Shown in pieces: positions 1,161 to 4,053 of a stretch of 4,315 nucleotides of DNA (within the stretch, counting starts at the first letter, position 1; each line of letters opens with the position of its first letter). The stretch lies in assembly GCF_056746865.1 (NCBI RefSeq), contig NZ_JBWKMP010000008.1; one strand, 5' to 3'. A program made the translations under genes and the position numbers. The notes under the pieces are model-generated. The model did not search any database. It saw nothing but the letters and a program-made list of their open reading frames with translations, and was not told where the DNA came from. The stretch comes from a plasmid.

Positions 1161-1275
1161 AGGGGTGGTACTGACTATTTTCATAAAAAACATCATTTTA
1201 TATTAGGGGTGCTGCTAGCGGCGCGGTGTGTTTTTTTACAGGACGCCCCTGGGGGCGCTGCTAGGGGTGTCTGTT
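1160..1275. repeat. Repeat-rich, potentially structured spacer: TAGGGGTG x3 (1161-1168 as aggggtgg, 1204-1210, 1262-1269), GCTGCTAG x2 (1211-1218, 1257-1264), CGGCGCGGTGT x2 (1125-1135, 1219-1229), long-range inverted repeat ctagcggcgc(1215-1224)/gcgctgctag(1255-1264)
   Basis: Words found by reading the sequence. No ORF of 60 aa or more on either strand here. Function unknown. Confidence 0.5.
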
Positions 1276-1289
1276 CAGATATGTAGCAA

Positions 1290-1520
1290 TGAGTCAGGGA
1301 TTCACGAACTGAAAATGTCCGAAAATGTGTCTCATGGGCACCGTATGCGCCCAAACCGATCGCCATTCACTTTCATGCATAGCTATGCAGTGAGCTGAAA
1401 GCGATCCTGACGCATTTTTCCGGTTTTCGCTTGGTAAAACATCTCTTTTTGCGGTGTTCGCGGCAGAATCGCGTTCAGCGCGTTTTAGCGGTGCGCGTAA
1501 TGCGACGTTATGGTAAATGA
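1290..1520. other. cer-like plasmid multimer resolution site: accessory region with ArgR-box-like palindrome (about 1376-1393, atgcatagctatgcagtg) and XerC/XerD core at 1490-1518 (GGTGCGCGTAA-tgcgacg-TTATGGTAAAT)
   Basis: Core arms match the Xer family (dif GGTGCGCATAA / TTATGTTAAAT; ColE1 cer GGTGCGTACAA / TTATGGTAAAT as I recall). Flanking gcgttcagcgcgttttagcggtgcg resembles ColE1 cer. ARG-box-like dyad lies about 110 bp upstream, the expected geometry. Confidence 0.75.
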
Positions 1521-1650: not shown

Positions 1651-1878
1651 ATGACTAAGCTAGATGCCACGCGCTTTAGCCGTCATGAGGGTTATGAGGT
1701 GTTAGATTTGATTAATTCCTTCCAGGCCAAAGGGGGTGGTGCTCTGACGCTAAAATCACAGCAGATTATCGAGTGGATGCTACATGAACGCCTGCCATCC
1801 AATATCCAGGGGCGAGCTCAGGTTAAAGCGTGGGTGGTTGATAACTTCTCGCAAATGAAGGATGGTTATCCATTCTGA
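1651..1878 (+). CDS. Small hypothetical protein (75 aa from ATG 1651; the in-frame ORF extends to ATG 1585, giving 97 aa), function unknown
   Basis: Strong Shine-Dalgarno AAGGAGA (1634-1640) 10 nt before ATG 1651. Clean intrinsic terminator immediately downstream. I do not recognise the family and see no obvious helix-turn-helix signature. The longer 1585 start has a weaker RBS. Confidence 0.55.
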   Translation: MTKLDATRFSRHEGYEVLDLINSFQAKGGGALTLKSQQIIEWMLHERLPSNIQGRAQVKAWVVDNFSQMKDGYPF

Positions 1879-1879
1879 T

Positions 1880-1906
1880 AAAAAGCCCGCTACAGCGGGC
1901 TTTTTC
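1880..1906 (+). terminator. Rho-independent terminator after the small ORF: stem agcccgc / gcgggct, loop taca, T-run; A-run upstream
   Basis: Seen directly: aaaaa-agcccgc-taca-gcgggct-tttt(t), starting 2 nt after the stop codon. Confidence 0.8.
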
Positions 1907-2015
1907 ATGAGCTGTGCTCAATGAGGCATTATGGTAAATTGTTATGGAGTGGGCATGTCTGTATATGATGCCTGGTGGTATGATTTTGTTTGTAACACTG
2001 GAAGGTTGTTGGAAT
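1907..2015 (+). promoter_or_regulatory. Upstream region of the endonuclease gene, containing TTATGGTAAAT (1929-1939; identical to the cer XerD arm, and readable as an extended -10 TGgTAAATT) and RBS GGAAGG (2000-2005)
   Basis: Sequence reading only. The promoter is not experimentally defined. Confidence 0.35.
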
Positions 2016-2939: not shown

Positions 2940-3854
2940 TTATTTGTTTAATCTCTTTATACTGGTCTCTACATATGTAGGGTTTATTTCGAAACCAATA
3001 TAATCCCTACCTAAATCTTTCGCTGCTACCAATGTAGAACCACTGCCACTAAAAGGGTCAATGACTAATTGACCTTTTTGTGTTGTTAATTCTATAAGTG
3101 TTTTCATTAAGGCTACAGGTTTTTGTGTTGGGTGTAATCCACTTTCATTGCTGGAAAATCCAGCTGTAATGACATTTTCAGGTTTGCCATTTCTTGCTAC
3201 AAATGCATCTTGATTATAAGCACCGACACCATGAATAATTGCATTATCTGCAATTGTGCCGCCAATTTTATATGGTTTAGAGAACCATAGTATGGGTTCA
3301 AAGGTTGGTTGTAGATTTCCAACTCGCCATCCATTCCATTTTTCTGCGTTTAATGTATCCCCGCGCCTTTCGTAAACGCAACTCAACCTTTGGGCTCTGT
3401 GAGGGGCTTTTACTCTCATCCATGCAATTATATCGCGAAGATTGAATCCAGCATCTTCCATTGCACATATGCATCGATGAGAAAATCTTCTGCCTGCAAA
3501 AATAATTGCACTGGCACCTGGTTTTAATACTCTGAACCATTCAGTAGCCCATTCTTCACACCATTGCTGATATTCTAATGGTATTTTCTTATCAGCCTCT
3601 GACCATCCATTTATTGGTTTTCCTCTTTTTTTAAAAATAGCACCTGCGTTTTTCTGCGCAGGGCTTGAACCTAGGTATGCGTTATTTGAGTTATTATGTA
3701 GCACATCCCAGTCTTCTGCTCCTATCCCATAAGGGATATCACTGAGTATTAAATGTGCATATTGTGATGGGAGTTTTTTTATTAATGATATCGAGTTACC
3801 ATTGGTAACGGTATTCTTTTTTATTTCATCAGGTAATTGGATCTTGTTTAACAT
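2940..3854 (-). CDS. DNA methyltransferase, beta-class (motif IV near the N-terminus, motif I near the C-terminus), amino-methyltransferase (N6-adenine by analogy to M.HindIII); 304 aa
   Basis: Motifs seen in the translation: LILSDIPYG (motif IV, DPPY-like), HPTQKP, VIDPFSGSGSTLVAA (FxGxG AdoMet-binding motif I). RBS AGGAA upstream of ATG at 3854 on the - strand. Convergent partner of the HindIII-like endonuclease. Confidence 0.9.
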   Translation of the reverse strand: MLNKIQLPDEIKKNTVTNGNSISLIKKLPSQYAHLILSDIPYGIGAEDWDVLHNNSNNAYLGSSPAQKNAGAIFKKRGKPINGWSEADKKIPLEYQQWCEEWATEWFRVLKPGASAIIFAGRRFSHRCICAMEDAGFNLRDIIAWMRVKAPHRAQRLSCVYERRGDTLNAEKWNGWRVGNLQPTFEPILWFSKPYKIGGTIADNAIIHGVGAYNQDAFVARNGKPENVITAGFSSNESGLHPTQKPVALMKTLIELTTQKGQLVIDPFSGSGSTLVAAKDLGRDYIGFEINPTYVETSIKRLNK

Positions 3855-3912
3855 CTAAATTCCTGCTCTTTCATAGCTTTAAAAACACGCTGATAGTATA
3901 CGTTAAAGTACC
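3855..3912 (-). promoter_or_regulatory. Candidate promoter/leader of the methyltransferase gene (-10-like TATACT, + strand 3895-3900), immediately adjacent to the RNA I terminator and RNA II promoter
   Basis: TATACT hexamer read on the - strand. No convincing -35. Placement is inferred. Confidence 0.3.
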
Positions 3913-3948
3913 TTGACGCAGGATTACCTTTCATCGTAGCCTTTCTGA
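3913..3948 (+). promoter_or_regulatory. RNA II promoter (-35 TTGACG 3913-3918; -10 candidate TAGCCT about 3937-3942)
   Basis: Position equivalent to the pBR322 RNA II promoter just upstream of the aaaaaacc...RNA I terminator sequence. The -10 assignment is approximate. Confidence 0.55.
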
Positions 3949-4053
3949 AAAGAAAAAACCGCCTTGCAGGGCGGTTTTTTCAAGGTTCAAAGAACTTGCA
4001 GGTTTTTGAACCACGGTAACTGGCTTTGTGGGAGCGCAGTCACCAAAATCTGT
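3949..4053 (-). ncRNA. RNAI: RNA I, the antisense copy-number control RNA (about 105 nt), complementary to the 5' end of RNA II
   Basis: 5' end placed by analogy with pBR322 RNA I (acagtatttggtatctgcgc... corresponds here to the reverse complement of gcgcagtcaccaaaatctgt). 3' end at the shared terminator hairpin. Confidence 0.8.
3953..3980 (-). terminator. RNA I terminator hairpin (aaaaaa-ccgcc-ttgcag-ggcgg-tttttt), which also forms the 5' stem-loop of RNA II
   Basis: Seen directly; equivalent to the pBR322 aaaaaaaccaccgctaccagcggtggtttgttt element. Confidence 0.8.

Follow-up and report, generated by a model that had tools for sequence, protein, structure and literature searches.

The window, i.e. 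the whole 4315-bp stretch of DNA analyzed, is a complete ColE1-type plasmid that several GenBank records match at 100% identity. Among its features are Rop, RNAI and a restriction-modification (R-M) system of the HindIII family. At 1308-1518 lies a cer-like site, in which an accessory region with an ARG box precedes a core made of a XerC arm, a central region and a XerD arm; a second, degenerate core lies further to the right (Table 1). Two open reading frames that overlap the accessory region, 1228-1398 (+) and 1193-1366 (-), were treated as spurious.

Table 1. Features of the cer-like site and of the degenerate second core, in window coordinates
Feature	Position	Strand	Sequence and basis
Accessory region, cer-like	1308-1489	+	Expected ArgR/PepA wrapping DNA; left limit is the onset of family-wide conservation
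Direct repeat GAAAATGT, two copies	1311-1318, 1321-1328	+	A-tracts phased at a 10-bp period, where the accessory region starts on the left
Pcer-equivalent position	1375-1401	+	ATGCAT (1375-1380), 15-bp spacer, TGAAAG (1396-1401); from alignment
ARG box	1376-1389	.	Perfect 14-bp palindrome TGCATAGCTATGCA; expected binding site of the ArgR hexamer, predicted from sequence
rcd-equivalent region	1402-1489	+	T/A tracts at 1415-1419, 1424-1427, 1436-1439, 1446-1450, 1483-1486
Imperfect inverted repeat	1402-1414 / 1458-1471		As 17 positions, 1397-1413 / 1460-1476, with 14 paired (own count)
4-bp hairpin	1470-1482	+	CGCG-TTCAG-CGCG, in the rcd-equivalent region
XerC-binding arm	1490-1500	+	GGTGCGCGTAA; predicted from sequence and degenerate-pattern match
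Central (crossover) region	1501-1507	+	TGCGACG, 7 bp; sequence and degenerate pattern
XerD-binding arm	1508-1518	+	TTATGGTAAAT; the site and the conserved plasmid backbone both end here on the right
Degenerate second core	1911-1939	+	GCTGTGCTCAA (7/11 against the XerC arm), TGAGGCA, perfect XerD arm TTATGGTAAAT

Core and accessory region

The degenerate pattern GGTGCGYRYAA-N6-8-TTATGKTAAAY has a single match in the 4315-bp window, against 0.00 expected from shuffled sequences. The match, at 1490-1518, has the arm-spacer-arm layout of cer-like sites (11 bp, 6-8 bp, 11 bp). Its 7-bp central region sets it apart from dif and psi, where this region is 6 bp long. The XerC arm is one base away from the dif arm, GGTGCGCATAA, and likewise from the psi arm, GGTGCGCGCAA. 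The XerD arm does not differ from that of ColE1 cer, whose core (NC_001371, 3909-3938) reads GGTGCGTACAA TTAAGGGA TTATGGTAAAT and has a central region of 8 bp. An earlier reading made from the sequence only had described both arms, the 7-bp tgcgacg between them and a different central region in ColE1, and is borne out on each count. A XerD-arm-like inverted sequence at ~1602-1612 agrees at 9/11 positions and was judged a chance match, about one such being expected in our own estimate.

The same reading called the central region non-standard, which holds relative to ColE1 alone and fails in general. We scanned cer-like cores in one genome per species. Among the resulting 109 cores the central region is 6 bp in 51, 7 bp in 39 and 8 bp, the ColE1 type, in 19, which makes 7 bp the second commonest length class. 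TGCGACG itself is found in 9/109 cores, beside four different XerC arms; sites L002, L014 and L019 also have it. A core identical to that of the window is present in ~200 PLSDB plasmids from at least four genera. Central regions of 6-8 bp are described for Xer sites (PMC5357621). The 7-bp spacer is thus a common natural form and ordinary. A literature search with the XerC arm string gave nothing relevant, and one for ‘7-bp central region’ returned only Vibrio phage papers.

Conservation by position, computed over 46 distinct cer-like sites, sets in ~75 bp left of the center of the ArgR box and runs to the core; over this stretch the window can be aligned with the ColE1 accessory region. The ArgR-box-like dyad that had been placed at 1376-1393 is confirmed, as the shorter palindrome of Table 1. 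It is near-invariant in the alignments and equals the family consensus gTGCATagccATgCA. From its center it is 107 bp to the XerC arm and 125 bp to the XerD arm, the modal geometry, shared by 62/80 sampled sites. The window thus has the single ARG box ~100 bp upstream of the core, at fixed helical distance, that marks the cer family. Where the central region has 6 bp, an extra base ahead of the XerC arm may compensate and so keep the distance from ArgR box to XerD arm at 125 bp; if this is true, the XerD side is the one to which the geometry of the synapse is measured.

The direct repeat gaaaatgt, also noticed previously, is present in both copies. An 8-mer repeated at such short distance is not significant by itself (~1 expected by chance per 4.3 kb, own estimate). 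Conserved columns of the 46-site alignment nevertheless take in the second copy (g.aaat) and part of the first; the ColE1 sequence aligned here is GAAACCATGAAAAATGG. The T-tracts at 1415-1419, 1424-1427 and 1446-1450 likewise coincide with conserved T columns. Together, ~1308-1489 has the length (~180-200 bp) and the phased A/T tracts around ARG box and core that characterize accessory DNA in this family; such phased tracts have been described (PMC2831885). Orientation agrees as well. RNAI lies on the minus strand (3950-4051), so RNAII is on the plus strand, on which the ARG box (1376) comes before the core (1490). According to PMC2831885, the ARG box precedes the core along the RNAII direction in all ColE1-like plasmids, and the window has this constant orientation relative to the origin.

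Plasmid identity and cargo junction

In size, gene content and restriction map the plasmid fits pEC156, which encodes an EcoVIII/HindIII-family R-M system. The unique NheI site at 1214 and the ~1.48 kb from HpaI (2312) to EcoRV (3787) match the pEC156 constructs in PMC4743918, and the published oriT coordinates agree if pEC156 numbering begins at the NheI site. By these signs the window plasmid is probably of pEC156 type (4315 versus 4312 bp). The site is an already known one, the described cer locus of a characterized plasmid type.

For pEC156 the multimer experiment suggested by the sequence-only reading has been published in part: cer-minus derivatives multimerize (PMC5573283). Two cer-minus plasmids, pRB1 and pRB2, are unstable in a hyper-recombinogenic host, where multimers as large as 10-mers arise, and the cer-plus pIB8 is stable (PMC5573283; PMC4743918). 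The R-M system acts as the second stability system of pEC156 (PMC4743918). If the plasmid is what it appears to be, this literature implies that the window site would convert multimers to monomers and stabilize the plasmid. Its sequence elements predict dependence on host XerC, XerD, ArgR and PepA.

We consider it probable that 1308-1518 serves a ColE1 plasmid of pEC156 type as its cer-type site for multimer resolution, that it lacks Pcer and Rcd, and that its core is also the boundary between cargo and backbone. By analogy with ColE1 cer, two directly repeated copies of the site in a dimer would be wrapped together by host ArgR, bound at the ARG box, and by PepA, which would lie along the bent accessory DNA with its phased A/T tracts. 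Wrapping would bring the two 29-bp cores into alignment. XerC at its arm would then exchange the top strands at the boundary of arm and central region, after 1500, with XerD on the opposite arm. Processing of the Holliday junction would turn the dimer into two monomers.

The cargo side of the core invites a different emphasis. Today the core could serve mainly as a Xer-dependent junction for gene exchange, by cer x cer recombination of co-resident plasmids or by resolution of oriT cointegrates, with swapping of the cargo right of the XerD arm and dimer resolution secondary; we regard this as possible but hold it only tentatively. Several observations favor it. Many plasmids resemble the window as far as 1518-1525, where the likeness ends within 1-7 bp of the XerD arm and gives way to different cargo; over the 46 cer-like sites conservation falls to zero right after this arm. 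Since similarity ends exactly at the XerD arm, the core is a cargo junction. Another plasmid has the ORF97 module (1519-1906) after the same core, with another neighbor, and related R-M modules directly adjoin other cer cores on the right. The R gene of three related HindIII-family R-M plasmids begins ~115 bp right of a genuine cer core. A given central region can also be found with more than one XerC arm and in more than one accessory lineage.

The degenerate core at 1911-1939 points the same way. It holds the second exact XerD arm of the window (0.13 expected), over 27 nt it directly repeats 1492-1518 with 78% identity, and its TGAGGCA is one base off the natural 7-bp central region TGAGGCG. 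Without accessory sequences and situated between two cargo modules, it is probably a fossil junction from the joining of cargo rather than an active site. Published precedents for cer/Xer cargo exchange are qnrB19 plasmids (Tran 2012) and R-M plasmids (Zakharova 2002), in the form in which PMC8683028 and PMC10454011 cite them. However, a role in exchange is compatible with dimer resolution, which is the function backed by the pEC156 experiments. The strict ArgR-to-core geometry is a requirement of resolution selectivity, not of intermolecular exchange, and exchanges would be rare evolutionary by-products that cannot be dated from sequence. We keep multimer resolution as the main function. The junction supports the published picture of the XerD arm as the seam that joins cargo, here R-M genes, to ColE1-type backbones.

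Promoter and hairpin at the Rcd position

Reviews present Rcd as a feature of cer, and the site might both resolve dimers and encode a functional Rcd-like checkpoint RNA from a non-consensus or displaced promoter. We consider this unlikely. ColE1-lineage sites have TAAAAT as a -10 hexamer, 15 bp past a -35 in the ArgR box; it is invariant in the eight sites aligned. We infer that this is Pcer of ColE1 from the 15-bp spacer, the direction of transcription, the description ‘encoded within cer’, the RNA length of 70-90 nt and the covarying hairpin downstream. A second ColE1 candidate, TGAACG-15-TACAAT, was rejected. Its -10 lies inside the XerC arm, Pcer mutations are reported to be without effect on resolution, and no structure is associated with it; its RNA would fall mostly outside cer in unconserved sequence, and Rcd is described as lying within cer. 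The window counterpart of this candidate (TCAGCG-15-CGTAAT) is a poor match.

At the Pcer-equivalent position of the window, the -35 equivalent is ATGCAT and the -10 equivalent TGAAAG lacks A2 and T6 of the sigma-70 hexamer. The window thus has no sigma-70 promoter of the Pcer kind (15-bp spacer, a -35 overlapping the ARG box as xTGCAT, a TAnnnT -10). In a census of 80 sites, TAnnnT is present at the -10 equivalent in 26 and absent in 54, the window included. A scan of 1150-2000 on both strands for sigma-70-like promoters with 16-18 bp spacers found none. Such spacers make a scan blind to Pcer even in ColE1, so we used our own scan with spacers of 14-18 bp, which gave nothing beyond a weak match (8/12) at each of 1301 and 1309. 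Both scans reproduce the earlier failure to place a confident Pcer, and no alternative promoter turned up on either strand. Pcer itself is atypical and context-dependent, and the lack of a consensus promoter does not prove a lack of transcription.

The RNA unit gives the same answer. In ColE1-lineage sites it lies between ArgR box and XerC arm, corresponding to window 1396-1489, and not across the core. The hairpin of this lineage (~65-70 nt) has a consensus energy of -39.3 kcal/mol, 10/25 compensatory pairs and z scores from -4.65 to -4.8. No stable covarying hairpin of this size was found downstream of the Pcer equivalent in the window. The fold of 1408-1488 reaches -19 kcal/mol (z -0.35) and that of 1394-1488 reaches -29.3 kcal/mol (z -1.67), as against -4.7 to -4.8 in true members; the consensus fold of the window lineage has -8.4 kcal/mol and 1/16 compensatory pairs. 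For 1440-1530, the interval from which the sequence-only reading had suggested a possible Rcd-like transcript, z is -0.60, no better than shuffles; with the homologous unit elsewhere and both -10 hexamer and hairpin absent, that suggestion is not supported.

Some traits do favor an Rcd-like RNA. By position the region is the homolog of rcd, and it retains a residual similarity of 21 bits (E ~0.003) to our Rcd covariance model. The imperfect inverted repeat pairs at 14/17 positions, with the better of the two energies above. The lineage conserves its motif CTGACGC...GCGxCAG, in which 87% of cells are paired. A private hairpin of the window lineage (CGATCCTGACGCA / TGCGxCAGAATCG) was considered on these grounds and rejected, its covariation being at shuffle level: the observed values were reached by 59-62/500 shuffles. 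In addition, a start at the ColE1-equivalent ~1408 would remove the 5' arm of the inverted repeat. Members score 45-105 bits with the covariance model, an independent member 69 bits, and 33/100 scanned loci reach at least 45 bits. Of the promoter-bearing sites searched, these matches miss a single one; no window-type site is among the matches. Promoter-like hexamer and stable fold co-occur across the 80 sites (Mann-Whitney p = 1e-9), and the window falls in the class that has neither. The pEC156 papers PMC4743918 and PMC5573283 do not mention Rcd. An Rfam scan of the window returned RNAI and weak terminator-driven matches only, none of them in 1290-1520, and this silence is uninformative because ColE1's own cer is also unmatched and Rfam has no Rcd family.

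Judged by these sequence features, the window site is a recombination site only, without the Pcer/Rcd checkpoint module, as are ~2/3 of the sampled cer-like sites. We lean toward the broader reading that this cer lineage lacks the Rcd division checkpoint altogether. The inverted repeat would then be a decayed remnant of the hairpin, and Pcer with Rcd would be an optional module in about one third of natural cer-like sites, whatever the length of the central region; pEC156-like plasmids would meet the ‘dimer catastrophe’ otherwise, for example by R-M post-segregational killing. The comparison provides a sequence definition of the ColE1-type Rcd module: the -35 in the ARG box, TAnnnT 15 bp past it, and then a covarying hairpin. 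Since most sampled cer-like sites lack this module, annotating ‘Rcd’ by analogy at any cer-like site is unsafe. For the window itself the significance is small, the locus being a described one and its flagged 7-bp spacer common.

It is highly improbable that the site is a non-functional cer relic on a plasmid kept by copy number and R-M post-segregational killing alone: the site departs from ColE1 in its central region, its XerC arm and a half-site of the ARG box, and the R-M system offers a second means of stability (PMC4743918), but all defining elements are intact and closer to the family consensus than those of ColE1, the identical core is maintained in the PLSDB plasmids counted above, and the multimerization and loss of cer-minus pEC156 in a hyper-recombinogenic host contradict it.

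Comparison with known systems

The closest well-known counterpart is ColE1 cer (NC_001371, ~3700-3938). It shares with the window the XerD arm, a GGTGCG...AA-type XerC arm, a single ARG box ~105-107 bp upstream, phased T-tracts, the conserved block GCGTTTTAGCGGTGCG, the orientation to the origin and the kind of plasmid. It differs in its central region (TTAAGGGA, 8 bp, versus TGCGACG, 7 bp), at three positions of the XerC arm and in the right half of the ARG box (ATTCA in ColE1, ATGCA in the window). The stretch from ARG box to core belongs to a different sequence lineage. ColE1 cer also has Pcer (TTGCAT-15-TAAAAT) and the Rcd hairpin, whereas the window has neither; at the homologous position, 1396-1489, the window retains the 3' block ATCGCG...CGCGTTTTAG of the ColE1 Pcer/Rcd RNA.

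Three other sites combine a 7-bp central region with the window's distance from ArgR box to XerD arm: L013 (Yersinia pestis, pPst/pPCP1-type), L015 (a Klebsiella aerogenes plasmid) and L014 (Escherichia coli p655Rt_7), the last with the same TGCGACG. Unlike the window, all three have a ColE1-lineage accessory region, TAAAAT and an Rcd hairpin (80-103 bits).

The pSC101 site psi and chromosomal dif use the same recombinases as the window site, but have 6-bp centers where the window has 7 bp and an ARG box. Their XerD arms are of the TTATGTTAAA type, and both complete XerD strand exchange. psi works with PepA and ArcA and dif with FtsK, neither of them with ArgR and PepA.

The overall layout is that of small ColE1-like plasmids whose variable regions are bounded by Xer and oriT sites: the qnrB19 plasmids (Tran et al., 2012), the R-M plasmids pECL18/pKPN2 (Zakharova et al., 2002) and the pCERC7 group (Moran and Hall, 2017). 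Cargo adjoins the right side of the XerD arm, as ORF97 and the R-M genes do in the window, and oriT lies directly left of cer, again as in the window, with no essential difference. To this arrangement the window adds the degenerate core at 1911-1939.

Core, central region and accessory sequences

The window contains a single match to a degenerate full-core pattern (chance expectation 0.00), with arms and 7-bp spacing as described in the sequence-only reading. That reading called the central region non-standard. Relative to ColE1, whose core reads GGTGCGTACAA TTAAGGGA TTATGGTAAAT as that reading also stated, the label is right; for cer-like sites generally it is not, because 7-bp centers are widespread and 6–8 bp is the normal range of Xer central regions (review PMC5357621). 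PLSDB has 292 records matching a 45-nt query centered on the core, and 203 of these match at ≥99% identity; the genera are Escherichia, Klebsiella, Salmonella, Shigella, Enterobacter and Citrobacter. In the comparison plasmids, centers of 6, 7 and 8 bp all lie beside closely related accessory regions. The center of E. coli plasmid p655Rt_7 is identical to the window's TGCGACG, and other 7-bp centers occur in one Y. pestis pPst plasmid and one K. aerogenes plasmid. Scanning one genome per species with the pattern GGTGCGNNNAA-N6-8-TTATGGTAAAT gave 109 sites, with centers of 6 bp (51 sites), 7 bp (39) and 8 bp (19); nine have TGCGACG, next to four different XerC arms. The 7-bp center is an ordinary natural variant.

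Features of the window and of ColE1 cer
Feature	Position	Strand or placement	Detail
rop	560–754	minus
R64-type oriT	~769–862	left side of cer	as published for pEC156, coordinates converted
F-type oriT	~1000–1283	adjoins cer on left	as published for pEC156, coordinates converted
Direct repeat	1311–1318, 1321–1328		GAAAATGT
ARG box	1376–1389		TGCATAGCTATGCA
XerC arm	1490–1500		GGTGCGCGTAA
Central region	1501–1507		TGCGACG
XerD arm	1508–1518		TTATGGTAAAT
ORF97 cargo module	1519–1906	right of core	ORF 1585–1878 (97 aa), terminator 1880–1905
Degenerate second Xer core	1911–1939	direct repeat, 421 bp downstream of true core	GCTGTGCTCAA TGAGGCA TTATGGTAAAT
HindIII-family endonuclease and N6/N4 methyltransferase			window-encoded
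RNAI	3950–4051	minus	85.8 bits
ColE1 promoter candidate 1		plus strand, ColE1	TTGCAT-15-TAAAAT; -35 overlaps ARG box
ColE1 promoter candidate 2		plus strand, ColE1	TGAACG-15-TACAAT; -10 inside XerC arm

The suggested ArgR-box-like dyad is a perfect 14-bp palindrome, and the suggested direct repeat is also present. We profiled conservation in an ungapped alignment of 46 distinct sites, with the ARG box and the XerD arm as anchors. Conservation begins ~75 bp left of the ARG-box center (window ~1308), includes part of the first GAAAAT and all of the second, and peaks at the ARG box, where the consensus gTGCATagccATgCA is the window's own box. Further conserved are T-tracts coinciding with window 1415–1419, 1424–1427 and 1446–1450 and the block just before the XerC arm; directly after the XerD arm, conservation drops to zero.

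From the window's ARG-box center it is 107 bp to the XerC arm and 125 bp to the XerD arm. This is the modal geometry: 62 of 80 cer-like sites have 125 bp between ARG-box center and XerD-arm start. A 6-bp center goes with one additional base immediately before the XerC arm (108+11+6, versus 107+11+7 for 7-bp sites). Most 8-bp-center sites have 126 bp; ColE1 has 125 bp. Among the cer-like sites scanned, the mixed combination 107+6 is rare, with 5 sites, and 108+7 is absent. Either selection on synapse geometry or plain common descent may lie behind the constant 125-bp distance. Since RNAI is on the minus strand, the primer RNAII is on the plus strand; the ARG box and then the core follow in the RNAII direction, the constant orientation of cer in ColE1-like plasmids (PMC2831885). 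Before the XerC arm, the window has a short hairpin, CGCG-TTCAG-CGCG (1470–1482), where ColE1 has CGCG-CTGAA-CGCG (3889–3901). The two lineages share the stem, but their loops are reverse complements, so that this small palindromic element looks as if inverted between them.

The Pcer/Rcd module

Published Rcd work describes a 70–90-nt RNA encoded within cer and transcribed codirectionally with RNAII; the Pcer hexamers are 15 bp apart, and Pcer mutations have no effect on resolution. The plus strand of ColE1 cer has two promoter candidates with this spacing. We infer that candidate 1 and the hairpin that follows are the Pcer/Rcd module, an assignment of our own rather than one quoted from the primary papers, because only candidate 1 precedes structure (ColE1 3829–3907 folds at −35.5 kcal/mol, z −4.8), its TAAAAT is invariant in 8/8 ColE1-lineage sites, and the hairpin covaries, with compensatory changes in 10 of 25 pairs (consensus −39.3 kcal/mol).

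The sequence-only reading left room for an Rcd-like RNA at 1440–1530. That stretch has a fold z of −0.60, and both the Pcer hexamers and the Rcd hairpin are absent from the window. Aligned to ColE1 Pcer are ATGCAT (1375–1380) and TGAAAG (1396–1401), the latter a −10 equivalent lacking A2 and T6. The equivalent of candidate 2 is also poor (TCAGCG-15-CGTAAT), and a scan of both strands found no further promoter-like sites near the window cer. The positional equivalent of rcd (1408–1488) folds at −19 kcal/mol (z −0.35; z −1.67 when the upstream limit is moved to 1394); across 11 sites of the window lineage, the consensus structure reaches just −8.4 kcal/mol and has a single compensatory pair. With a covariance model trained on the aligned ColE1-lineage sites, the model's own members score 80–105 bits, an independent member (L020, a related R-M plasmid) 69 bits and the window 21 bits. 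An imperfect inverted repeat (1402–1414 with 1458–1471) is conserved in the window lineage, where its covariation is no better than in shuffles; this repeat may be what is left of a hairpin, or an element acting at the DNA level. To the extent that sequence can decide, the answer on Rcd for this window is negative. Rfam is no help here because it has no Rcd family. Its weak sub-threshold matches to rsmX, Trp leader and isrK (window 1798–1908) all rest on the cargo-module terminator and are not credible RNA genes.

A census of the 80 scanned sites with a recognizable ARG box divides the family. A TAnnnT hexamer stands at the Pcer −10 position in 26, with a median downstream fold z of −5.0; in the remaining 54 the position holds CAGAAA, TGAAAA, TGAAAG, TAAAAC or the like, and the median z is −0.97 (Mann–Whitney p = 1e-9). 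The covariance model reaches at least 45 bits at 33 of 100 scanned loci, and among the loci searched it misses a single promoter-bearing site and picks up zero window-type sites. About one-third of natural cer-like sites combine a Pcer-like TAnnnT, placed 15 bp after xTGCAT, with a stable ~65-nt covarying hairpin, and the rest lack the two together (loci L012–L018, L020 and L021–L129). Both classes include 6-, 7- and 8-bp centers, so center length and Rcd status are independent. A small group with GCGCAT...AAAAAC (L085, L098, L104, L124) has the hairpin (72–73 bits) and a different hexamer in that register.

Some enterobacterial cer-like sites lie on short contigs of unrelated bacteria: L060 (Zoogloea sp.), L097 (Thauera sp.), L021 (Streptomyces), L043–L045 (Streptococcus) and others. 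Accessory regions among them equal the window's in ARG box, TGAAAG hexamer, TGCGACG center and fold energy, and the Zoogloea and Thauera contigs have ~1x coverage. The likeliest source of the cer-like sites in these assemblies is contamination with E. coli plasmid DNA.

The core as a junction with cargo

Backbone similarity to hundreds of plasmids ends no more than a few bases from 1518, with unrelated cargo beyond. The 97-aa ORF product strongly matches phage family phrog_33929 (function unassigned) and has no match in Pfam or NCBIfam. The ORF97 module occurs in 9 PLSDB records only. In one 3855-bp plasmid (NZ_AP022102) it follows the same core at 97% identity, with the ORF frameshifted and a different neighbor.

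The degenerate second core separates the ORF97 module from the restriction gene. Its exact XerD arm (1929–1939; 0.13 expected) falls inside 27 nt that directly repeat the true core at 78% identity, and the 7-bp "center" is one base off the natural center TGAGGCG. In three related HindIII-family R-M plasmids (L020, L130, L131), the endonuclease gene starts ~115 bp right of a genuine cer core. On the simplest reading, the second core appears to be a fossil, left by a former cer/R-M junction: the R-M module would originally have stood directly beside a cer core, and later joining of the ORF97 module and the present cer would have left the fossil behind. Earlier work (Tran 2012, Zakharova 2002; cited in PMC8683028, PMC10454011) already proposed that recombination at cer and oriT is one way in which ColE1 plasmids evolve, R-M plasmids among them, and Moran and Hall (2017) make the same proposal.

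Plasmid identity and comparison with known cer sites

Over its full length the window is 100% identical to three 4315-bp entries for complete plasmids of E. coli and Salmonella (CP056658.1, NZ_CP032493.1, CP098986.1), and pEC886 corresponds to this plasmid plus a Tn3 insertion. Size (4315 versus 4312 bp), gene set and restriction map point to pEC156, the EcoVIII R-M plasmid. The map (unique NheI at 1214; HpaI 2312 to EcoRV 3787, ~1.48 kb) agrees with the pEC156 constructs of PMC4743918, and the published oriT coordinates fit as well, provided that pEC156 is numbered from the NheI site. The cer site sits between the transfer origins on its left and cargo on its right; the many conjugative-plasmid matches in the similarity search came from the oriT portion of the query. 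The plasmid encodes an AAGCTT-specific R-M system, and the whole window has no AAGCTT (HindIII/EcoVIII) site.

Our new points are modest: the division of the family by presence or absence of the Rcd module, the constant ARG box–XerD arm distance and the fossil core. The sequence-only reading correctly described a known object. The window shows every sequence feature by which cer-type sites are defined, and its site is a genuine multimer resolution site belonging to a characterized plasmid type. Work on pEC156 lends independent experimental support. Its authors recognized the pEC156 cer locus through similarity to ColE1; cer-minus derivatives pRB1 and pRB2 formed multimers up to 10-mers and were unstable in hyper-recombinogenic JC8679, in which the cer-plus parent was stable (PMC5573283, PMC4743918). 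By analogy with the ColE1 paradigm (summarized in PMC5357621), the window site would need XerC, XerD, ArgR and PepA, and strand exchange on its 7-bp center would presumably be of the ColE1 kind.
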